Below, piece after piece: positions 4,108-21,985 of a stretch of 64,000 nt of DNA. The DNA is from a virus (taxonomy: Duplodnaviria; Caudoviricetes): positions 1 through 64,000 of the IMG/VR virus record IMGVR_UViG_3300001485_000138; one strand, given 5' to 3'. The notes beneath the pieces were generated by a model, which was not told the DNA's origin, ran no database searches, and saw only the letters and a program-made list of their open reading frames with translations. A program made the translations under genes and the position numbers. The stretch's first letter is position 1. Each line of letters starts with the position of its first letter.

Positions 4108-5451
4108 ATGAAAGAACCAAATATAGAGCAAAAAGCAAAAGCCTATGACGAGGCAATAAAAGTAATTAAGGATAATTTGGATGCCCTTAATGAAATTACC
4201 GAAACAGGGGCAGAGGTTGTAAATATTCAATCTATTAAAAATTGTTTTTACAGAGCATTCCCCGAACTCAAAGAGTCAGAGGACGAGAGGATAAGGAAAG
4301 AAATCATTTATCATATTCAAAATTGTGATGATACAATAGATGAGGAAACAGAGAAAAGAATGATTGCTTGGCTTGAAAAGCAAGGAGGTAATCTTGTTGA
4401 AAATGGTTATACAAACAACAAAGATTATATTAAATATGCCGACAACTATTCGCATGAAATTTGGCATAAATTAATGGATAACTTTAAAAATATTAAAGAT
4501 TATCACATAGGTTGCAATGATGTTTCAGATATTGTTCTTAATGCTATTATAGATACATGCAACTGGCTTGAAAAGCAAAGTGAGCAGAAACCTACTGATA
4601 AGGTTGAGCCAAAGTTCCATCCAGGTGATTGGGTTGTAGATATGTGCGGTTATGTCTGGAAAGTAATAAGAATAATAAATCAATGTTATCTCTTAAAAGA
4701 TACTGATGGAAGTGAATCACTCCCTACAATAGAATGGGTTAGTAAGACCTACCATCTTTGGACTACCAAAGATGCAAAGGATGGTGATGTGATTTCTTGG
4801 GATGATAGCAAATGTATCGCTTTATTCAAAAACATCTACGATAAAGATTCTTTTAATAGTTATGGATTTGTAGGACATTGTACAGGCACATTTGAAGCAA
4901 GACACGGTTATCACGACATAGAAGGTGCTCATCCTGCTACTAAAGAACAGCGTGATACTCTGATGAAAGCGATAACTGATGCAGGCTTCACTTTTGACTT
5001 TGAAAAGAAAGAATTAAAGAAGATTGAAGATGAAATAGAAATCCCTTTTGCTGCTAAGGATAGTGAATTGCAGGAAGCCACTTACTATATTCCTAAAGGT
5101 TTTCATGCAGAAATAGATGATGATAAAGTAGTCATTAAAAAAGGTGAAAAACCTACTACTAAGAGAGAAGAGGAAGAAAGAATGTTAAACTTGATAATTG
5201 CTGTCTTTGAGGTTAATCATCCAAATGAATATTTCAAAGCAAATGAGTTAAACGACCCTAATATGAGGGCTGTTTACACCGAAGAAATAGTCGCTTGGCT
5301 TAAATCCCTCAAACAAAGAATAGGGTGGAAACCAAGTAAAGAACAAATAGACGCTTTAGATTCAACTCTTCAATATAGTCAAGTATCACACAATTCACTT
5401 GAGCACCTTAATTCACTATATAATGATTTAATGAAACTAAAAGAAGAATAA
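4108..5451 (+). CDS. mosaic hypothetical protein (about 447 aa) with repeated WLEKQ/WLKSL modules
   Basis: Track ORF 4102..5451; internal quasi-repeats IAWLEKQG, CNWLEKQS, VAWLKSLK. Confidence 0.8.
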   Translation: MKEPNIEQKAKAYDEAIKVIKDNLDALNEITETGAEVVNIQSIKNCFYRAFPELKESEDERIRKEIIYHIQNCDDTIDEETEKRMIAWLEKQGGNLVENGYTNNKDYIKYADNYSHEIWHKLMDNFKNIKDYHIGCNDVSDIVLNAIIDTCNWLEKQSEQKPTDKVEPKFHPGDWVVDMCGYVWKVIRIINQCYLLKDTDGSESLPTIEWVSKTYHLWTTKDAKDGDVISWDDSKCIALFKNIYDKDSFNSYGFVGHCTGTFEARHGYHDIEGAHPATKEQRDTLMKAITDAGFTFDFEKKELKKIEDEIEIPFAAKDSELQEATYYIPKGFHAEIDDDKVVIKKGEKPTTKREEEERMLNLIIAVFEVNHPNEYFKANELNDPNMRAVYTEEIVAWLKSLKQRIGWKPSKEQIDALDSTLQYSQVSHNSLEHLNSLYNDLMKLKEE

Positions 5452-5454
5452 ATT

Positions 5455-5943
5455 ATGGAAACAAAAGAACTAAAGATTTCAGTACCAGAAGGCTATGTGA
5501 TAGACAAAGAGAACTCTACGTTTGAGTGCATTAAGTTCAAGAAAATTGAACAAAAGAGGTGGAGAGATAATAAAGAGGCTAATATAGTAGGATATTATAT
5601 CAATCTTGATAGCAAGATTGTGCAAATAGAAAAAGACGGTGATTATAAGAATATAAAATCTAATCATGATGTTTTTGCGGCAGAAAAGCAAGCCAAATCT
5701 GCATTGGCTATGGCTCAAATAAGTCAGATAATGGCTAACGACAAAAGGTTTGGAGGTGTTGTTACCGATGAAGAGTGGAATAGTGATGATTGGAAATATA
5801 TTATTGACCGTAAATATAATGATGTATGTATTAACCGTTGCATAAGTAGTTATTATTTTATGGCTTTTCATACAGAAATACAAAGGAATTTATTTTTGAA
5901 AGAGAATGAAGACCTAATAAAAGATTATTTAATGCTTGATTGA
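5455..5943 (+). CDS. hypothetical phage protein (162 aa)
   Basis: ORF track. Confidence 0.75.
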   Translation: METKELKISVPEGYVIDKENSTFECIKFKKIEQKRWRDNKEANIVGYYINLDSKIVQIEKDGDYKNIKSNHDVFAAEKQAKSALAMAQISQIMANDKRFGGVVTDEEWNSDDWKYIIDRKYNDVCINRCISSYYFMAFHTEIQRNLFLKENEDLIKDYLMLD

Positions 5944-6833: not shown

Positions 6834-7087
6834 AAGACTATACAACAGATGAATTGCACGAAGAACTAAAGCGTAGAATTGCTGTTGCTAGAGAGCAAAA
6901 AGCAAAAGAGCGAGAACAAAAGCCTATATGTGATAATTGCAAACATTGCATCATCCAAAAACAAGGTGGTGTTACTTTCTATTATTGTGGTGCAAAAACT
7001 TATACACTGAAAGATAGAGGTGTTACAAGAAATTATGTAGTCAATAAGGGTAGTATGTGTAAGTTTAATCTATTTGAACGTAAATAA
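6824..7087 (+). CDS. hypothetical protein with putative Zn-binding Cys cluster
   Basis: CDNCKHC...YYC...C. Confidence 0.7.
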   Translation: MELKDYTTDELHEELKRRIAVAREQKAKEREQKPICDNCKHCIIQKQGGVTFYYCGAKTYTLKDRGVTRNYVVNKGSMCKFNLFERK

Positions 7088-7428
7088 TGATACAAATAAC
7101 TTTTAAGACATTAAAGCGTAAAGTAAAGAACTTTTTACATTTGCCTGTAACAAGAGTAGAAGTTCTTGAATATGCTAAAGAATTGCAAAGTACTTGTCAG
7201 TACCCAGGACTTTGTTCGTTATTAAATGACGCTCTTGAACATTATAACATTCGGCCAGTTGCTCCTACTGTCTTTCCAAAATTCACCAAAGACTATGCAA
7301 GACGTTTTGGAGCATCATACCATGGATATTGGTGGGAACCTTGTCTATGGGACACTGGTAGGCTTGATTTCCTATATTGGCTAATAAATGAGTATAAAGA
7401 CGATAAAACTAATATACGAAAATTATGA
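7087..7428 (+). CDS. hypothetical protein (113 aa)
   Basis: ORF track; TAATG coupling. Confidence 0.7.
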   Translation: MIQITFKTLKRKVKNFLHLPVTRVEVLEYAKELQSTCQYPGLCSLLNDALEHYNIRPVAPTVFPKFTKDYARRFGASYHGYWWEPCLWDTGRLDFLYWLINEYKDDKTNIRKL

Positions 7429-7664
7429 ATATAGTATTAGGTATATTGTCAATTTTAGTTTATGCAGGTTTTGTTATATTTACTCTAAAAAATAGAGTAA
7501 AACTTGTAGGAATTTTTGGTATAACTTTGGGCATACTTCTTACGATTGGTTATTATTACAAAGAGATTAAACCTATAGATGTCTATCGTGGTAATACAAC
7601 TCTTGAAATAACATATAAAGATGGAGTTGCTGTAGATAGTGTAGTAGTTTGGAAAAATAAATAA
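7425..7664 (+). CDS. small membrane protein (79 aa)
   Basis: Two TM-like segments; ATGA overlap. Confidence 0.7.
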   Translation: MNIVLGILSILVYAGFVIFTLKNRVKLVGIFGITLGILLTIGYYYKEIKPIDVYRGNTTLEITYKDGVAVDSVVVWKNK

Positions 7665-7666
7665 TT

Positions 7667-7846
7667 ATGAATATAGTTTTAGAAATTAATGGTATACGTC
7701 ACAAACGTGTACCTGATACAAATTCACACAGTAATCTTTGTGATAATTGTTCGTTAATAGATTTGTGTGATAATTTAGTATATGGTTTTTGTTATGATTT
7801 AGATAAAAAAGAAGGTCTAGGTAATTTTATAAAAGAAGAACAATGA
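7667..7846 (+). CDS. small Cys-rich protein (59 aa)
   Basis: Hand-translated; CDNCSLIDLC. Confidence 0.55.
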   Translation: MNIVLEINGIRHKRVPDTNSHSNLCDNCSLIDLCDNLVYGFCYDLDKKEGLGNFIKEEQ

Positions 7847-8259
7847 AGACGTTAAAATTTGATATACCTTTATACAACATTCATGTTGATTTGGTGCAAG
7901 TGGAAACCAAAGACGATAAAGATGATGTAATTAAGCTTATGCGTACTATAGAATGTGAGCAAGAGTTTATAGACGAATTTATAGATTATATTGAAAGAGG
8001 GTATTATGATGGAGGAAATACATATCGTAATTTTGATTTTAAAAGAATTCTTGTTATCTTTTATCCTATGAGTGATGAAGAGACACGCGCAGAACTCTAT
8101 GCACACGAAAAACGTCATATAGAAGATAGAGTTATGCAACATGCTTCGGTAGATGATATAGAAAGCGCAGGATTGCTTGCAGGGTATCTTGGTAAAATGT
8201 TTTATCAGTTTAATAATAAAGTAAAAAAAATAAATGAAAGCAAGAAGAAAGAACTCTAA
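7843..8259 (+). CDS. small HExxH (zincin-like) protein, paralog 1
   Basis: YAHEKRH...ESAGLLAGYL. Confidence 0.7.
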   Translation: MKTLKFDIPLYNIHVDLVQVETKDDKDDVIKLMRTIECEQEFIDEFIDYIERGYYDGGNTYRNFDFKRILVIFYPMSDEETRAELYAHEKRHIEDRVMQHASVDDIESAGLLAGYLGKMFYQFNNKVKKINESKKKEL

Positions 8260-15377: not shown

Positions 15378-16400
15378 ATGCTAATAGGTAAAACTGCATC
15401 AAGTATATCAGTTCAAGAATTATTTCAAAAGTATTCAGAGGTACAGATATTCACCGCTGCCTTTCCTGAGATAACTTCAATACCTTGCAAGATAAGTTCA
15501 CCATTCAGAGTGGATAATAACCCGTCATTTAGTATATATCTTGACAATGGTGGGCATATAAAGTTCAAGGATTTTGGAGATTCCACATGTCATGGAGGAC
15601 TTCTTGACCTTCTATGCAAGAAATGGAACTGCTCTTTCCGGCAAGTCTTTGACAAGATTCTGCAACTCATGGCTCATAGTGAAGTCAGTGCAGAGGAATT
15701 TGGTTCCTCTGTTAAATCCAAGCAGATAAAAATACTCACCCGTAAGGAAGCCTCTGAATCTACCAAAATCCAAGTAGCTGTACGTCCTTGGCAAAAGTAT
15801 GACTATGACTACTGGGCATCCTATGGAATAGAAAAGCAGTGGCTTAAGTATGCAGAGATATATCCTATAAGTCATAAGATTGTCACTAAGAGGGATAGTA
15901 AGACAGGAAAACTTAATAAATACATATTTCCTGCTGATCAGTATGCTTATGTCTATGTAGAACGTAAAGAAGAGAAACTACAACTAAAGATATATCAACC
16001 CTATAATACTAAAGGATTTAAGTGGTGTTCTTGTATGGATTCTTCTGTTATATCTTTATGGACTAAAGTACCTGAAAGGGGAGATAGAATCATCATCTGC
16101 TCCTCAGTGAAAGATGCACTCTGTCTGTCTTGCAACTTGTATATACCTGCCATAGCTCCACAAGGAGAAGGCTACAGTCTTAGTGACACTGCTGTCAGTG
16201 AACTCAAAAGAAGGTTTGATAAGGTTTTTATTTGTTTTGATGTAGATAATGCAGGAAAGACAGATGCAGAGAAACTCGCAAAGAAAACAGGTTTTATCAA
16301 CATTGTACCTGACTTGGGGAAAACCAAAGACCTTAGTGACTATTGGAAATCCCTTGAAAACAAAGAAGACTTTAAACAACTTGAAACACTATTTCATTAA
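15378..16400 (+). CDS. DnaG-type DNA primase
   Basis: N-terminal SPFRVDNNPSF...FKDFG domain; TOPRIM CSSVKD and CFDVDNAG. Confidence 0.85.
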   Translation: MLIGKTASSISVQELFQKYSEVQIFTAAFPEITSIPCKISSPFRVDNNPSFSIYLDNGGHIKFKDFGDSTCHGGLLDLLCKKWNCSFRQVFDKILQLMAHSEVSAEEFGSSVKSKQIKILTRKEASESTKIQVAVRPWQKYDYDYWASYGIEKQWLKYAEIYPISHKIVTKRDSKTGKLNKYIFPADQYAYVYVERKEEKLQLKIYQPYNTKGFKWCSCMDSSVISLWTKVPERGDRIIICSSVKDALCLSCNLYIPAIAPQGEGYSLSDTAVSELKRRFDKVFICFDVDNAGKTDAEKLAKKTGFINIVPDLGKTKDLSDYWKSLENKEDFKQLETLFH

Positions 16401-16420: not shown

Positions 16421-17140
16421 ATGGAACCAAGAGAAATTCTTATCGCTAATTCAAAAGACCAACGTCGTTATAAAATCACCACTGCTGCTGTAACCCTTCT
16501 ACAACTGAAAGAAGATATTATGGCTAATAACAATGTCCAAATGTATGATGGGGTTAATTGGATACCAAACACTGAACCTATCAATACATCAGGAATGACA
16601 TTTACTGAAGGTATTACAAAGACACAGCTTATAGCTGATGATTCTGTATTGCCTACTAATGTTATGTTCCGAGGTACCCCTACTAACTCTCTTGTAATAC
16701 TTCTTACCAACACAACCAAGAATATTGCTTCTGGTGCTGGTGACAGAAAGACTGCCTATGAACTTATCAAGCAGATGGGTCTTCAAAATACCATCAAAGA
16801 AATCTATGGAAAGAACTTCACACAGGTATCTACCGATAATCTCTACACAGTAATAGAAGATAGCAAGAATCATCCTTATGAATGTTCTCAAGATAGCCAG
16901 TGTACTGAAGTTTCCACTCCGGAAACACCATCACCATCCAAGCCTTCTGTTTCTGCTGCACACCCTGAAACTGTCAACTGGCTTTACGATGGTATCAAAG
17001 CTATGGTAAAAAATAACACTCTTTATGTAAATGATGTAGTAGTATTGTCAGAGCTTATCAGTGAATATTCTGCACGACTACAAGAAGAAACACCTCAGAT
17101 TACAGACGAGGATATAACCCTTATGTTGCACAGCCTGTAA
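16421..17140 (+). CDS. ubiquitin-like (beta-grasp) protein with C-terminal extension
   Basis: N-terminal about 105 aa with beta-beta-alpha (TLLQLKEDI)-beta pattern ending KNIASG(105)AG; first gene of the E2-JAB-E1 cluster. Confidence 0.6.
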   Translation: MEPREILIANSKDQRRYKITTAAVTLLQLKEDIMANNNVQMYDGVNWIPNTEPINTSGMTFTEGITKTQLIADDSVLPTNVMFRGTPTNSLVILLTNTTKNIASGAGDRKTAYELIKQMGLQNTIKEIYGKNFTQVSTDNLYTVIEDSKNHPYECSQDSQCTEVSTPETPSPSKPSVSAAHPETVNWLYDGIKAMVKNNTLYVNDVVVLSELISEYSARLQEETPQITDEDITLMLHSL

Positions 17141-17164
17141 TTGAATGCTTCATAGATTTGTTTG

Positions 17165-17202
17165 GAAGTGCAGTAAGCTTTTAGTTTGCTGCACTTCTTT
17201 TT
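17165..17202 (+). terminator. intrinsic terminator between the Ubl and E2 genes
   Basis: 14-bp stem GAAGTGCAGTAAGC/GTTTGCTGCACTTC (two G.U pairs) followed by TTTTT. Confidence 0.8.
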
Positions 17203-17239
17203 ACTATATAGATTACAATATTTTTTAAATTGAAATCTT

Positions 17240-18457
17240 ATGGTTTTTACACCATTACAATTAAAACAACACATATATCAGCCTGTTTTTGATGTGTATG
17301 ATATATTCAAAAATCACTTCGGGGAAGATTATACTGACTTACAAGGCATCCTTAATGATGATGAGTATAACTCCCTGATTGAAGATTACTATCCACAGTC
17401 TGACTCTTCTCAAGAAATAACAGAAGAAACTCTGACTGGACTAAAGGGAAATATTCCCAATCCACATATCTTAGTATGGTGGCCTAAGGTTACTGTAACA
17501 AATGAATATGACAAACATATAAACATTACTGACTTATATGCGAAGATAGAAATCACTACTGACGGTAATATACCTTTTGAATGGACCAGTGGTTTTAAAC
17601 TTATCCGAACATCTGCACCACCATCACAAATAATAGCTGGATATGTCCACTCTCATGTTTATTCAGACAGAAACTACACAAACATACAGGAATTTAAAAC
17701 TCCTTGTCTTGGAAGAGGGCCTATTAGGCAGACAGTCCTAAGTCTTATGACATCATACAGCATGGAACTATGGATGCTTTTTTGTGAAGAGCTGTCAAGA
17801 TATGTTACTGTAGAAAGTCTGAATGGAGGCCCTTATATCCGTATGGAGTCGGTAGGAGGTAAAAGTGAAATTGATATAAAGCAACAGTTTGGATTTAATC
17901 TGGATTATGTGCTCATTCTTGGAGACTTATATAGCCCACATGGCATACAGAAACTGAATGATATAATTAAATCATTCTTTAAATACTACTATATATTAGA
18001 TAACAGGCTATCCATAGACTTCGATGGTTTGCAGTATAGACTGGGAAAAGATATTATACATGGTCTTATAGATGTATCCAACTCTTTTATAAGGTGGGCA
18101 AATATTTTGCCGACAGAGGAAAGGCAATGGATAAAGAATACCAATTTATTAAATAAATATGTATGCACTGAAGGTAAGATATATGAAACCTCAGGATCAC
18201 TTACAAGCAATCTTACTCACTTACATTATTGTCGATGCCTAAAGTTCAAAGAAGAAGATATATACTTCAAGATACTTGATGAAGATATGGTTGAGGATAA
18301 TGCAGTAACATTGTTAGACATCCCCCTTGCCGCAAAACTGATAAAAAACATATTTAATATTCTAAATTACAGATACAATGGAACCAATAACACAGAATCT
18401 TCCAGCAATAGAAAAACAGTCTGCTACATTCAAAATGAATGTACCTCAGAAGGTTGA
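17240..18457 (+). CDS. prokaryotic E2-like (UBC-fold) protein
   Basis: YVHSHV (H137-H139) followed by candidate catalytic C156 in PCLG; neighbours JAB and ThiF. Confidence 0.65.
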   Translation: MVFTPLQLKQHIYQPVFDVYDIFKNHFGEDYTDLQGILNDDEYNSLIEDYYPQSDSSQEITEETLTGLKGNIPNPHILVWWPKVTVTNEYDKHINITDLYAKIEITTDGNIPFEWTSGFKLIRTSAPPSQIIAGYVHSHVYSDRNYTNIQEFKTPCLGRGPIRQTVLSLMTSYSMELWMLFCEELSRYVTVESLNGGPYIRMESVGGKSEIDIKQQFGFNLDYVLILGDLYSPHGIQKLNDIIKSFFKYYYILDNRLSIDFDGLQYRLGKDIIHGLIDVSNSFIRWANILPTEERQWIKNTNLLNKYVCTEGKIYETSGSLTSNLTHLHYCRCLKFKEEDIYFKILDEDMVEDNAVTLLDIPLAAKLIKNIFNILNYRYNGTNNTESSSNRKTVCYIQNECTSEG

Positions 18458-19502
18458 AGCTAAAATCAGACATCTTATTGATAAGTTTCCACATACCGAA
18501 TGGTCTGGAATACTCTTTTATACCTATTCAGGTAACTTTGAAGACAAAAGTCTTATCATCACATGTGAAGACATTCTCCTTATGGATATAGGAACTGCTG
18601 GATGGACTGATTTCCACATGACTCCCGATGTAGCTGCCTATATTGCCCAAAATCCAGAACTCTTCACCGCAGAAACCGGCCTAATCCATTCTCATCACAC
18701 CATGGGTGCTTTCTTTAGTGGTCAGGACATACAAAGACTGAGAGAAGATGGTAATGATACTAATTGCTTTGTTTCTCTGGTTGTAGATACAAGAGGAACT
18801 TATGTAGCTGCTATTACACGGAAAGTAAGAAAACAAAAAGAAATCAAGAATTTTGGTAGCTCTTATGAGTTCTTTGGGAAGGGAAGAGTCTCTGTAGGAG
18901 AAGCTTCAGAAGCACAAATTATTTCAGAAGATGTAGTAGAATATTTCTCTCTGGAGGTAAACAGGGAAATAGTACCTAACAAATTCAGTGAACTGGACTC
19001 AAGAATAGCAGAAATAACTACTCTAAAGCAAAAGCCAGTAACACCAAGTCTTCCTGTGACAACAAAAGGTAATGACTATGATTTTGACTTTTCTGAGTAT
19101 AGAAAACAAAAGAAGGAGGAGAAAATACAACAGCCTACACTATGGACTGACGAAGAAATGGGTACTATAGAACAAGGTGTTAACTCCGAAGATATAGAAC
19201 TCATGGCCACAAAACTGATAACTTGTGACCTTCTTACTGAAACTATACATAACCTGAAGCAATGGGTTGATGAAGTTATGGATACCGCTTATACTGAGTT
19301 CTTCCAAGCTTCCAATGACTTTGATGCATGGGTATCATTTATCATACCATATCTGCTCGACAATTACCGTAATTGTAATCCTTTCTACGAGGAAAAAGAC
19401 ATTGCTCAAGCTCTCTACAACAAGCTCTACACTCTTCCACAAAATGAGTGGGTTGAACAATATATGATAGAACTTACAAACTATTTTGAAGACTATGATT
19501 GA
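18378..19502 (+). CDS. JAB/MPN+ (JAMM) metallo-isopeptidase
   Basis: Complete JAMM motif E41...H104-S-H106-x7-S114-x2-D117. Confidence 0.9.
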   Translation: MEPITQNLPAIEKQSATFKMNVPQKVEAKIRHLIDKFPHTEWSGILFYTYSGNFEDKSLIITCEDILLMDIGTAGWTDFHMTPDVAAYIAQNPELFTAETGLIHSHHTMGAFFSGQDIQRLREDGNDTNCFVSLVVDTRGTYVAAITRKVRKQKEIKNFGSSYEFFGKGRVSVGEASEAQIISEDVVEYFSLEVNREIVPNKFSELDSRIAEITTLKQKPVTPSLPVTTKGNDYDFDFSEYRKQKKEEKIQQPTLWTDEEMGTIEQGVNSEDIELMATKLITCDLLTETIHNLKQWVDEVMDTAYTEFFQASNDFDAWVSFIIPYLLDNYRNCNPFYEEKDIAQALYNKLYTLPQNEWVEQYMIELTNYFEDYD

Positions 19503-20559
19503 TATAGAAGAATGGCCTAACTTAGAAGAATGGATTAACTACATAAATAACCAACAAGTACCTGCTTCATCACTTTCTTCCACACCTACACCACAAGCTG
19601 AATCTAATCACAATGACAATGAAAGCTTTATTACAGAAACTATAAATCTTACTGACCAAGATGTAGAAGATATTATGGCTGACAATCAGTTTAACTCAGT
19701 TGTGGAAAATACTGAAGATAATACAGCAACCGAATTATTTGAAGAAACATCTGAAGAAGAAAGTACTGAAATCCAGATAGAAGATGTACCTATGGAAGAA
19801 CCAGCATCTGAAGCTAACTCTGAGCTTATTCCTGAAAACTCCCCTTCGTTACTTGTAGAAGAAGCCACATCAAGATTTTCTGGAGCTGAATGGTTTGATG
19901 CTCTACAACAAGTAGCTGTAACAATAGCAGGATTGGGAGGTATTGGCTCACACACTGCTTTTCAAATTGCAAGAACGACACCCTATGCTATGTATCTGTA
20001 TGATGATGACATAGTAGAGGAAGGGAATATGTCAGGACAGATGTATGGGAGAGATAATGTAGGAGGATTTAAGACACAAGCAATGTATAAAATCTTAAAA
20101 CAATTTACATCTTGCCCATATATCAGAGTCTATTCTACAAAGTTTACTTATGATTCTCCTCCTACAGATATTATGATTTGTGGGTTTGATAACATGACAG
20201 CAAGAAGAGAATTTTTTAATGCGTGGAAAAGGTGGGTAAACAGAGTAGAAGATAAATCTAAATGCCTTTATATTGATGGCAGACTCAGTTTTGACACTCT
20301 CCAAGTTCTCTGTATTCAAGGCTCAGACTCTTATAATATGCAAAGATATGAAGAAGAGTTCTTGTTTTCAGACAGTGAGGCAGATGCCACTATCTGTTCT
20401 ATGAAGCAAACTACCTATCTTGCATGTATGATAGCCTCTATTATTTCTAATCTCTTTATCAATTTTGTTGCAAATAGTACGAAGCCTGCATTACCCTATG
20501 ACTTGCCTTTCTTTACACAATATGATGCACAAAATATGATATTTAAAACTGAATACTGA
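19486..20559 (+). CDS. ThiF/E1-like adenylyltransferase with acidic N-terminal extension
   Basis: GLGGIG (149-154), YDDDIVEEGNMSGQ, CGFDNMTARR, IDGRL; candidate catalytic C304. Confidence 0.9.
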   Translation: MKTMIDIEEWPNLEEWINYINNQQVPASSLSSTPTPQAESNHNDNESFITETINLTDQDVEDIMADNQFNSVVENTEDNTATELFEETSEEESTEIQIEDVPMEEPASEANSELIPENSPSLLVEEATSRFSGAEWFDALQQVAVTIAGLGGIGSHTAFQIARTTPYAMYLYDDDIVEEGNMSGQMYGRDNVGGFKTQAMYKILKQFTSCPYIRVYSTKFTYDSPPTDIMICGFDNMTARREFFNAWKRWVNRVEDKSKCLYIDGRLSFDTLQVLCIQGSDSYNMQRYEEEFLFSDSEADATICSMKQTTYLACMIASIISNLFINFVANSTKPALPYDLPFFTQYDAQNMIFKTEY

Positions 20560-21272
20560 TGACAAAATTAGAAGAAGCATTATATAAGGTTTATCTTGCT
20601 ATTCCTTATGGCAGGGGACGTTACTCAGATCCTCAAAAATCCATAGTTAAAAACATGGAAATACCAGTGGATACTGATGTAATAGAAATACCTTGTTTCC
20701 TCTTACCGCGGTTTAAATTGTATGCACATTCTAATGACCAATCAGCCGATGCTATTATAACACAATTAGATGACTGCGCACAAGAGCCTATGTACAAAAC
20801 ATTAGCTAGTGAACTTAGTTATAGTATTAGAACCCAATACATCACAAAGTTTGAAATACCTCAGCAAAATCAAACGGTTAAATATCTTATAACATTTGGA
20901 GCAATATTAGAAGAGGACCTTAATCCTATAATGATGTGCTCTTGGGTATTAAGGAGAAGGCCAAATACTGAAAGTGATGATTGCTATGAGTATTTGTATC
21001 CACTACTCCGGATAGCTCCTAAATGTCTTCTATATCCTAATAATCTTATGGAGAGAACAATAGGCAAGAAAATACCGTCATTGCTTATAGGAAAAACAAT
21101 AAAACCTAATTCGTGGGTTACTCTGATAGAAGAAGATTTAAGACCGCTCAGGTTAGAAGTGGCAGATTCTCCGTTTAAGATGACTGCCATTACTCCTGCA
21201 TTTCCAGATGTTTCAAACGAAGATTTACTTAGATGTGCATACAGTTTCAGCGATGATTTCACATTGTTATGA
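20559..21272 (+). CDS. hypothetical protein translationally coupled to E1 (237 aa)
   Basis: TGATG overlap with the E1 stop. Confidence 0.7.
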   Translation: MTKLEEALYKVYLAIPYGRGRYSDPQKSIVKNMEIPVDTDVIEIPCFLLPRFKLYAHSNDQSADAIITQLDDCAQEPMYKTLASELSYSIRTQYITKFEIPQQNQTVKYLITFGAILEEDLNPIMMCSWVLRRRPNTESDDCYEYLYPLLRIAPKCLLYPNNLMERTIGKKIPSLLIGKTIKPNSWVTLIEEDLRPLRLEVADSPFKMTAITPAFPDVSNEDLLRCAYSFSDDFTLL

Positions 21273-21985
21273 CCATAAATGAATATTTTTCTGACTGGTC
21301 AAAAGTAATAGACCTGAATGAGGCAGATAGAATAATGAAGAAACTGTCTGCCTCTAAAACAACTATCTGTCCTAATCTCAAAGACATCTTTAAAGCATTT
21401 CGTCTATGTCCACTGGATAGTCTCAAGGCGATAATACTTGCACAAGACCCCTACCCCACCCTAAAGCAGTCTGTGCAAGGAAGTTCTGCTTCCTTATCCA
21501 TACCTGTAGCTACTGGTCTTGCATTTGCCAACTCTCCAGATACCCCAGAGACTCAATTATCTCCTTCCTTAGACATTCTTAGGAACTCTGTAATCGACTT
21601 TACGGTACCACATAATTGTATTAACTTTGACCCAAGTTTAGAGAAGTGGGAAAGGCAGGGAGTTTTATTACTCAATTCTGCACTCTCATGTGAAGCAGGA
21701 AAAGCAGGTTCACATACTCTGTTATGGAGAAACTTTATGAAAGTCTTGCTCACAAAACTCTCTGAATACCATACTGGTATAGTGTATATCCTGATGGGTA
21801 AGGTGGCAGAAAGCTTCGGTAGCTACATAGATGAAACACATAACTATGTACTGCACATCCGACACCCATCATGGTATGCCAGGGAAAAGAAACAAATGCC
21901 TTCAGATATATGGAGAAAGGTAGATGACATTCTTACACAACAATATGGGTATGGAATAGAGTGGTATCAAGAGTTTAACTTATAA
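21269..21985 (+). CDS. ung: uracil-DNA glycosylase, family 1
   Basis: AQDPYP, GLAF, GVLLLNSAL, HPS motifs. Confidence 0.9.
   Translation: MTINEYFSDWSKVIDLNEADRIMKKLSASKTTICPNLKDIFKAFRLCPLDSLKAIILAQDPYPTLKQSVQGSSASLSIPVATGLAFANSPDTPETQLSPSLDILRNSVIDFTVPHNCINFDPSLEKWERQGVLLLNSALSCEAGKAGSHTLLWRNFMKVLLTKLSEYHTGIVYILMGKVAESFGSYIDETHNYVLHIRHPSWYAREKKQMPSDIWRKVDDILTQQYGYGIEWYQEFNL

Follow-up and report, generated by a model that had tools for sequence, protein, structure and literature searches.

Here, we describe a cassette of five consecutive genes that lies between a DNA primase and a uracil-DNA glycosylase (UDG) gene in a 64,000-nucleotide stretch (hereafter the window) of an 86.7 kb IMG/VR virus record, i.e., positions 1 to 64,000 of IMGVR_UViG_3300001485_000138. 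The nearest named relatives of this phage are the Steigviridae-type crAss-like Bacteroides phages (crAss001, Kolpuevirus, DAC15, and the cr106/cr126 group). Predicted folds, conserved motifs and comparative genomics support the prediction that the cassette encodes a ubiquitin-like protein (Ubl) conjugation cascade, consisting of a precursor of the modifier (ORF1), an E2-like protein (ORF2), a JAB/JAMM peptidase (ORF3), an E1-type adenylation enzyme (ORF4) and a fast-evolving fifth protein (ORF5; ORF, open reading frame). An initial annotation of the window, made from the sequence alone, had placed five genes between the primase and UNG/UDG, all of which we find on the + strand, and all of its coordinates and overlaps agree with ours. 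The motifs it quoted (the JAMM motif, the E1 core, HSH...C156LG and KNIASG105) are likewise all found in the translations, and they are conserved far more than chance would allow in homologues that share 30-50% identity. The features of the locus are as follows.

15378..16400, + strand: DNA primase, lying upstream of the cassette (E 2e-96 to 2e-172 in phmmer against related-phage ORFs annotated as DNA primase)
16421..17140, + strand: ORF1, 239 aa, predicted Ubl precursor (pro-Ubl) with an N-terminal beta-grasp domain, a flexible tail and a conserved helical C-terminal extension (AlphaFold2)
16421..16735, + strand: predicted mature modifier, i.e., beta-grasp domain plus tail, residues 1-105, Gly105 being the last
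16718..16735, + strand: tail motif K100-N-I-A-S-G105, predicted site of JAB cleavage and E1 activation
16736..17137, + strand: C-terminal extension of ORF1, residues 106-239 (helices 109-150, disordered linker, helices 182-238)
17164..17203, + strand: terminator-like 16-bp hairpin plus T run, between ORF1 and ORF2 (terminator scan)
17240..18457, + strand: ORF2, 405 aa, with an N-terminal half that is E2-like (UBC/UEV/RWD fold) and a further domain at the C terminus
17648..17707, + strand: H137-S-H139 ... C156 of ORF2, candidate HPN-like motif and catalytic Cys
18378..19502, + strand: ORF3, 374 aa, predicted JAB/JAMM metallopeptidase (residues ~20-160) plus a C-terminal helical region
19486..20559, + strand: ORF4, 357 aa, acidic variable N-terminal extension plus a single predicted ThiF/E1 adenylation domain (118-357)
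20395..20397, + strand: Cys304 of ORF4, candidate E1 catalytic (crossover-loop) Cys
20559..21272, + strand: ORF5, 237 aa, fast-evolving fifth gene, translationally coupled to ORF4 and UDG
21269..21985, + strand: UDG, the downstream neighbour (phmmer against annotated UDG genes)

The last four genes overlap one another (ORF2-ORF3 by 80 nt, ORF3-ORF4 by 17 nt, ORF4-ORF5 by 1 nt within TGATG) and ORF5 overlaps UDG by 4 nt (ATGA), forming a translationally coupled chain that runs from ORF2 through UDG. Between ORF1 and these four genes lies a 99-nt spacer, in which the hairpin is found.

Two members of the cassette fall into established enzyme families. Pfam Prok-JAB matches 22 of 22 members of the ORF3 family (best E 1e-6), with the window protein itself scoring just under the threshold of 25 (1e-4, 22.6 bits), and a profile of the family searched against PDB matched only CSN5, an archaeal JAMM1 and an Rpn11-like protein, with the H-S-H...S...D segment aligned. 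Residues E41, H104, S105, H106, S114, and D117 are invariant, also among 28 diverged homologues. The family matches, the PDB profile matches and the invariant residues together confirm the JAB protease that had been read from an intact JAMM motif, and we identify ORF3, by sequence, as a JAB/JAMM peptidase. No family could be assigned to the ~215 residues that follow its catalytic domain.

ORF4 is matched by Pfam ThiF (PF00899) over residues 133-353 as one domain (E 8e-13, 48.5 bits vs a cut-off of 28.1), its best named matches also include NCBIfam ThiF (3e-17) and MoeB, and of the proteins with a solved structure TcdA, UBA5 (1.5e-4), and MccB are closest to it in sequence. Among 33 non-redundant homologues (35-51% identity) the invariant positions comprise G149-x-G-G-x-G154, R163, D173, D175, N181, Q185, and K196, and further C232-G-F-D235, R240, and D264-G-R266. 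Cys304 is found in 32 of 32 complete non-redundant sequences, within the motif (D/E)-x-T-x-C-S-x-K-Q-T, at a position that we take to be that of ThiF C184 and MoeB C187; in the Flavobacterium phage FpV4 the corresponding protein (gp50) retains it as P-C-T-M-K-Q-T. The E1/ThiF core noticed at first is thus borne out by a Pfam score above cut-off, invariant residues of the nucleotide (ATP and Mg) site and a C304 shared by all complete sequences, and ORF4 can be assigned to the E1-type adenylation enzymes of the ThiF family. Residues 1-117 (19486-19836) are strongly acidic, of low complexity and variable in length among phages, and this extension is missing from FpV4 gp50 (228 aa). Owing to the conservation of Met4 in at least 90% of sequences, translation probably starts at the ATG at 19495 and not at the TTG at 19486, which would cut the overlap with ORF3 to 8 nt (ATGATTGA). 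Having a single catalytic domain of ~240 residues, ORF4 is a minimal ThiF/MoeB/UBA5-like E1 and not one of the IAD-AAD-CYS type (inactive adenylation, active adenylation and CYS domains) seen in BilD.

The named relatives of ORF4, i.e., ThiF, MoeB, TcdA, and MccB, are also those to be expected of a sulfur-carrier or small-molecule pathway. There, ORF1 would act like ThiS, MoaD, CysO, or QbsE, being trimmed by the JAB protein and adenylated by the ThiF-type enzyme in order to supply a thiocarboxylate (or an acyl-adenylate) for a modified nucleotide, a cofactor or a DNA/tRNA base. JAB trimming of sulfur carriers is known from the CysO/Mec and QbsE/QbsD pairs, and such a role would suit a replication and nucleotide-metabolism module, as the cassette is found amid primase, UDG and other DNA-metabolism genes. 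However, family scans of the five genes revealed no rhodanese, cysteine desulfurase, ThiG, MoaE or similar partner, and the product of ORF1 differs from a sulfur carrier in its C terminus, as set out below.

More than 1100 homologues of ORF1 were found. Its AlphaFold2 model, built from 52 of them, has a mean pLDDT (predicted local distance difference test) of 78.7, with ~90 over the first 80 residues and 81-82 from there to residue 100, and the order of its elements (strand-strand-helix-strand) fits a beta-grasp. In a VIA structure comparison of the N-terminal domain against PDB, all 50 of the 50 best matches have the beta-grasp fold, and the best Foldseek matches in PDB are mostly ubiquitin, ISG15, UBX, FAT10, SUMO or Urm1, with weak E values (0.02-0.1), a probability of ~0.9-0.99 and a TM-score of ~0.6 on the target. 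The predicted structure thus identifies residues 1-100 of ORF1 as a ubiquitin-like beta-grasp; the initial annotation had expected this fold for residues 1-105, and what we recovered is the fold over 1-100, followed by a disordered tail that ends in an invariant S-G. MoaD chains (6jc0, 5mpo) are present among the beta-grasp matches, as a sulfur carrier would predict, but the tail of ORF1 reads S-G105 followed by a conserved domain of 134 residues, in place of the terminal G-G of ThiS and MoaD. No family from Pfam, PHROG, NCBIfam or PADLOC matched ORF1 (alignment members that were scanned gave scattered chance hits), and a profile search of PDB sequences gave no meaningful match.

In the tail of ORF1, K100, I102, S104, and G105 are invariant in the 52 sequences, A106 is present in 90% of them and the next residue is free. 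Residues 101-106 have the lowest pLDDT of the region (< 50), yet it is here that its only invariant cluster is found, and an invariant K-x-I-x-S-G in a disordered linker is the pattern expected of a protease or E1 recognition site. The homologue in FpV4 (gp53; profile match 1e-10, ~25% identity) retains the tail as K-Q-V-K-S-G-G. Beyond the tail, R109, N132, T134, L141, H181, K193, D205, and P225 are invariant in the same 52 sequences, and the C-terminal extension is retained in every ORF1 homologue.

Mobile elements have been inserted close to both the predicted cleavage site and the catalytic site of the predicted protease. In one related locus (L059:4673-5886) a 157-aa ORF of an HNH-type endonuclease (4995-5468) splits ORF1 two codons after the S-G (...KKIKSGKF stop), with the C-terminal half resuming at 5395-5886; as no group I intron model matched there, the two halves may be either spliced or separate products. 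Group I introns (Rfam RF00028, 66-70 bits) cut the JAB gene at its H-x-H codons in three other loci (L040:7486-7704, L044:1727-1939, and L067:7473-7732), and a 1.9-kb insert with a LAGLIDADG-type ORF, without an Rfam match, occupies the same point in L017/L018:7495-9362. Homing elements favour the most constrained DNA, so that these positions fit the functional cores of the two proteins. In a further locus (L006:6986-8227) the JAB gene reads as two ORFs (6986-7858 and 7889-8227), for which a frameshift or an error in the sequencing of that contig may be responsible.

That the extension of ORF1 is conserved and never lost also suits another explanation, one of processing without conjugation. 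ORF1 would then be a fusion precursor similar to the eukaryotic ubiquitin-ribosomal protein fusions or to lambda TAPI, in which the beta-grasp is an aid to folding or assembly, or a scaffold of the replication machinery that polymerises in the manner of DIX/PB1 domains, and the JAB protein only frees the C-terminal domain; ORF2 would be a non-catalytic adaptor of the UEV/RWD type and the ThiF enzyme would serve some other substrate. Among the structural matches of ORF1 the DIX, SOSEKI and PB1 domains equal ubiquitin in Z, and a Ubl with a JAB protein in the absence of E1 and E2 is known from phage tail assembly (PMC1779556).

The model of ORF2 has a pLDDT of 82.9, exceeding 90 over most of residues 1-190, and consists of a long N-terminal helix, strands 32-35, 76-87, 93-104, and 120-123, the segment Y135-x-H-S-H139, a loop, C156-L-G, and helices 161-171 and 175-188. 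This order fits the UBC plan, with Cys156 positioned after the four-stranded sheet, in the loop just before helix 161-171. In a comparison against 48,161 chains, residues 5-207 matched E2, UEV, RWD or Atg10 chains in 37 of the 50 best cases, at low Z (4-5.8). Chain D of 9eav (residues 239-361) is present among these matches, and since this numbering fits residues 230-362 of BubAB, which constitute BubB (PMC11601596), we read it as BubB, the E2 of the bacterial Bub pathway. Y135, S138, H139, C156, and G158 are invariant in 49 sequences (26-43% identity) and H137 is present in at least 90% of them; gp52 of FpV4 retains the pattern as Y-M-H-S-H ... F-C-I-G. We therefore consider the N-terminal half of ORF2 to be E2-like at the level of the predicted fold, on account of the low-Z matches and the invariant Cys/His pattern. 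A UBC fold around C156 had been anticipated, and this was upheld in part: a UBC/UEV/RWD-type fold was found at low Z, but profile comparisons with Cap2-E2 and BilB (given below) were negative. Residues 210-380 constitute a further domain without a match.

Other searches with ORF2 were less revealing. Foldseek of the model gave no credible match in PDB and only uncharacterised phage homologues in BFVD, a profile search of PDB sequences had no meaningful match, and Pfam, PHROGs, NCBIfam and PADLOC returned unnamed PHROGs only, with scattered chance hits among the members of its alignment. An exhaustive profile search placed 3104 clusters (at 50% identity) in the ORF2 family, the best 150 of which are close phage homologues, and the entry in the ESM Atlas is a poor model only (pLDDT 0.27).

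These results bear on both alternatives. Non-enzyme UEV and RWD domains are among the best matches of ORF2, as an adaptor would have it, but processing alone leaves the invariant Cys156 and His pair of ORF2, together with the invariant Cys304 of ORF4, unexplained. Sulfur-carrier pathways, on the other hand, have no protein of the E2 type (10.1101/2023.09.26.559546), whereas in the phages the remaining genes are conserved along with ORF2, a large protein that combines a UBC-type fold with an invariant Cys. For this reason, and for those given above, we regard a sulfur-carrier role as quite unlikely.

The fifth gene, ORF5, evolves fast (15-28% identity) and is present, by profile hidden Markov model (HMM), in 69 of the 69 crass-type loci in which the stretch from ORF4 to UDG is covered. 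Searches of Pfam, PHROG, NCBIfam, PADLOC, PDB profiles and the ESM Atlas had no match, with chance hits only for members of its alignment. The gene at the same position in FpV4 (gp49) has no detectable relation to it.

In related genomes the cassette is conserved as a unit. A scan of viral contigs with ORF4 as a single sequence gave no match, while the alignment-based search succeeded, recovering 80 loci in IMG/VR in which the order primase-ORF1-ORF2-ORF3-ORF4-ORF5-UDG is kept in all, as far as the contig reaches. Together with two annotated GenBank loci (L001 and L002) these make up a set of 82, in which ORF1-4 are found together in 73 (the remainder mostly cut by contig ends) and the primase lies directly upstream of ORF1 in 80. 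In crAss001 the cassette corresponds to gp79 to gp75, which are annotated as hypothetical, hypothetical, 'metalloprotease domain', 'thiamine biosynthesis protein ThiF' and hypothetical. Among GenBank phages, ORF2 and ORF4 match an identical set of 74 records, ORF4 matching five jumbo phages besides. The block is absent from crassviruses of other families that share the primase, e.g., crAss002 (Intestiviridae), cr55_1 (Suoliviridae) and Carjivirus communis. FpV4-type Flavobacterium phages also keep the order of the four core genes, although these lie downstream of UDG instead of between primase and UDG, and the fifth gene there is unrelated. Present or absent as a block, and relocated in FpV4, the cassette is thus an accessory module that is inherited and moved as a whole. 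The co-conservation on which the initial annotation had made its proposal depend is thus seen, both as synteny across crassviruses and in the four core genes of FpV4-type phages. Strict co-inheritance of four genes in two distant phage groups is also something that processing without conjugation leaves unexplained.

Outside of viral datasets, in a scan of the genomes of 185,579 species with the ORF4 alignment, every occurrence of the cassette was in a phage-like setting that included primase and UDG, and this also applies to the 12 loci from genome or metagenome-assembled genome (MAG) contigs. Two long contigs carry diverged cassettes, a 640-kb contig of a Bacilli MAG (L097; ORF1-ORF5 and UDG) and a 374-kb contig of a Puia sp. 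MAG (L098; primase, ORF2, ORF3, and ORF4), and these could be integrated or plasmid-like crass-type phages, or assembly chimeras. The ThiF genes of the jumbo phages (Xanthomonas, Erwinia) have no relatives of ORF1, ORF2 or ORF3 nearby, as judged by HMMs. In Xanthomonas phage PhiXhv-15 (L086:2262-5636; similar in Erwinia phage Ep032) a 227-aa ThiF comes right after an 892-aa hypothetical protein with H-P-H ... C-L-G, reminiscent of the ORF2 motif, in which the HMMs of ORF1-3 find no match. Host Ubl-type defences exist in the phylum of the genome that holds the Puia contig (G001), and are rare in the 401 genomes of this phylum that we sampled: one (G289) has a Bil operon (L104; BilB E 5e-50) and five (L099-L103) have a CBASS (cyclic oligonucleotide-based antiphage signalling system) Cap2 with a neighbouring gene of 330-360 aa.

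The closest parallel to the phage cassette is Bil, which has the same four parts in the same order, Ubl-E2-JAB-E1 (as read in the Bacteroidota operon L104; also PMC11601596), with overlapping genes and no E3 encoded, as in the phage. In Bil the JAB protein pre-processes the Ubl to expose its C-terminal Gly (10.1101/2023.09.26.559546), which is likewise what we propose for the phage, and the intact E...HxH...S...D motif by which the JAB protein of a Bil system is judged is present in ORF3. This identity of gene order is a third observation for which processing without conjugation has no explanation, and on balance we consider that alternative unlikely. There are also clear differences from Bil. 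It is a bacterial, anti-phage system of defence islands, while the phage cassette is carried by a phage of virulent type and is always accompanied by primase and UDG. The Bil E1 has the IAD-AAD-CYS architecture (PMC11601596) and ORF4 a single adenylation domain. BilB and BilC are each less than half as large as the E2-like and JAB proteins of the phage, the phage Ubl adds the conserved 134-residue domain, and the phage set adds a fifth gene. No sequence relation to the phage Ubl, E2 or JAB could be detected: in hhalign comparisons with the single Bacteroidota operon, ORF1 vs BilA had a probability of 0.3% and ORF3 vs BilC was negative, which with so thin a template speaks only weakly for absence, and PADLOC found no BilA match.

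Bub (type I, formerly '6E'/DUF6527) offers a parallel for the fused precursor, as its Ubl is made joined to a downstream domain and is cut by the JAB protein just after a conserved Gly (PMC11601596), and its E2 is the BubB (9eav) found among the structural matches of ORF2. In Bub, however, the downstream domain is the E2 itself and the JAB protein is fused to the E1, in contrast to the separate genes of the phage. Bub forms serine oxyesters and has an E1 without a catalytic Cys, whereas Cys156 and Cys304 are invariant in the phage proteins, and no Pfam match to the DUF6527/BubE protease was found in the phage cassette. The phage cassette thus belongs to neither system, although it would work like Bil or Bub.

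CBASS Cap2/Cap3 shares with the phage cassette the ThiF-type E1 chemistry, an E2-like domain and a JAB antagonist. Of the PADLOC models, those of the Cap2 E1-E2 match ORF4 better (8e-11) than does that of BilD (6e-6, over residues 147-243 only), the second conserved domain of ORF1 suggests that it is more than a tag, and ORF1 always adjoins the primase. One could therefore envisage a regulator modelled on Cap2 acting on the CD-NTase, with ORF1 attached through Gly105 to a single partner, or forming chains, as a switch that the JAB protein turns off. On the other hand, the cassette is not a CBASS, which has an E2-E1 fusion next to a CD-NTase, while the phage has separate E2 and E1 proteins, a separate beta-grasp modifier and, in family scans of the cassette genes, no CD-NTase. 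ORF2 has no profile similarity to the E2 domain of Cap2, and the reactive Gly is internal, meaning that the C-terminal domain would be lost upon activation. We regard such a regulator as very improbable, and as a variant of the conjugation cascade more than a true alternative to it.

Other systems resemble parts of the cassette. Like ORF4, the E1s of UBA5-UFC1-UFM1 and of the ThiF/MoeB-ThiS/MoaD pairs are single-domain and ThiF-sized, and UFM1 also needs C-terminal trimming to expose its Gly, but only the Rossmann core can be aligned with ORF4 and there is no evidence of a UFC1-type E2 or of sulfur-transfer partners in the phage cassette. Membership in the PRTRC-type cassettes, which had been mentioned initially, was not upheld, as the scores lie far below the curated cut-offs of the NCBIfam models (TIGR03735/TIGR03736), with 28.5 bits against 144.75 for PRTRC_ThiF and 13.5 against 101.8 for PRTRC_A. 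The only phage precedent that we found is the TAPI/JAB pair of lambda. TAPI of lambda and T1 is a phage beta-grasp with a conserved Gly and an additional C-terminal domain, next to a JAB protein (TAPK) that is predicted to cut there (PMC1779556). However, it is part of the tail module, lacks E1 and E2 and is not thought to conjugate, whereas the cassette described here is in the replication module and includes an E1 and an E2-like protein. Asgard viruses have been reported with E1-like genes only (10.1101/2021.07.29.454249). Neither a complete Ubl set in a phage nor this cassette was found described in the full-text literature, which leaves most subscription journals uncovered, so that an earlier mention is possible.

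Taking all of the above into consideration, we find it somewhat probable that the cassette is a self-contained, phage-borne pathway for the conjugation of a ubiquitin-like protein. From the folds, motifs, conservation and gene order we infer the following course of cleavage, adenylation, thioester transfer and conjugation, as well as its targets and biological purpose. ORF1 would be made as a precursor composed of the beta-grasp modifier, the flexible K-x-I-x-S-G tail and the 134-residue C-terminal domain. The JAB protein (ORF3) would cut after Gly105, releasing the free modifier and the C-terminal domain as a second product, and ORF4, probably as a homodimer like MoeB or UBA5, would adenylate Gly105 and load the modifier onto Cys304. 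From there it would move to Cys156 of the E2-like ORF2, whose extra C-terminal domain, perhaps along with ORF5, may choose the target, and it would finally be joined to lysines of phage or host proteins, a mark that the JAB protein may also reverse. Each unusual step has a precedent, given that BilC cleaves a BilA-GFP fusion and exposes its Gly (10.1101/2023.09.26.559546), that BubCD cleaves the BubAB fusion right after G229, and that Bil is E3-less, with the E2 picking the target (both PMC11601596). Control of infection and counter-defence are our leading guesses as to the purpose.

The hairpin after ORF1 suggests how the supply of the modifier may be set. It has 16 bp, is GC-rich and followed by a T run, with a minimum free energy of -26.7 kcal/mol (z = -3.99). 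In related phages, 36 of 47 distinct spacers have a hairpin at this position too, unrelated in sequence and in most cases followed by a T run. The simplest reading is that of a conserved, probably leaky terminator. With ORF1 transcribed together with the primase, and the hairpin and T run after it, the substrate would probably be in excess over the four coupled enzyme genes. The idea that the hairpin is part of a repeated element was dropped, because its sequence occurs only once in the window. At 17153-17160, 3 nt upstream of the hairpin, is a Bacteroides-type -7-like box (TAGATTTG) that could put the hairpin at the 5' end of an ORF2-5 transcript instead; this box was given no weight, being a single 8-mer match that, by eye, is not conserved in the related spacers.

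Several observations weigh against a conjugation cascade. The tail of ORF1 is S-G and not G-G, its C-terminal domain is always kept, and a search for naturally short, already mature forms ending at the Gly recovered truncated fragments only, so that ORF1 could act uncleaved. No E3 and no target is evident. As regards the E2 identity of ORF2, no match to the Pfam families Prok-E2 or UQ_con was found in 49 homologues, and hhalign probabilities were 0.1-0.2% when ORF2 was compared with one BilB and its core with the E2 domains of five Bacteroidota Cap2 proteins (0.1% for the latter), these negatives being weak evidence of absence given such thin templates (five sequences or one). Furthermore, BilD or Uba1 engage their E2 through an inactive adenylation domain, a CYS domain and a ubiquitin-fold domain, none of which ORF4 has, and the best sequence relatives of ORF4 include the non-conjugating ThiF, TcdA, and MccB.

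Prokaryotic Ubl conjugation has so far been characterised on bacterial chromosomes, where it is mostly anti-phage (Bil, CBASS Cap2/Cap3 and probably Bub). We see an even chance that Steigviridae-type crAss-like phages (including crAss001, gp79-gp75) and FpV4-type phages encode a complete Ubl cascade with which host or phage proteins are tagged during infection, and whose Ubl and E2 families would be unrelated in sequence to any described. If true, viruses would have in it an offensive or regulatory counterpart to the Bil, Bub and CBASS defence machinery of bacteria, and it would be, as far as we could find, the first complete Ubl system of a virus of bacteria. It would also extend the Ubl and E2 folds by two new sequence families, provide another modifier that is made as a fusion precursor, and give a likely role to four or five genes now recorded as 'hypothetical', 'metalloprotease' or 'thiamine biosynthesis protein' in a phage group that ranks among the most abundant of the human gut. 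Given that the cassette is present in cultured phage-host pairs (crAss001/Bacteroides intestinalis, DAC15/B. thetaiotaomicron and FpV4/Flavobacterium psychrophilum), the prediction is directly testable. A complete, phage-borne set would reverse the picture of Ubl conjugation as a bacterial defence, and the question would then be what a phage gains by tagging proteins.

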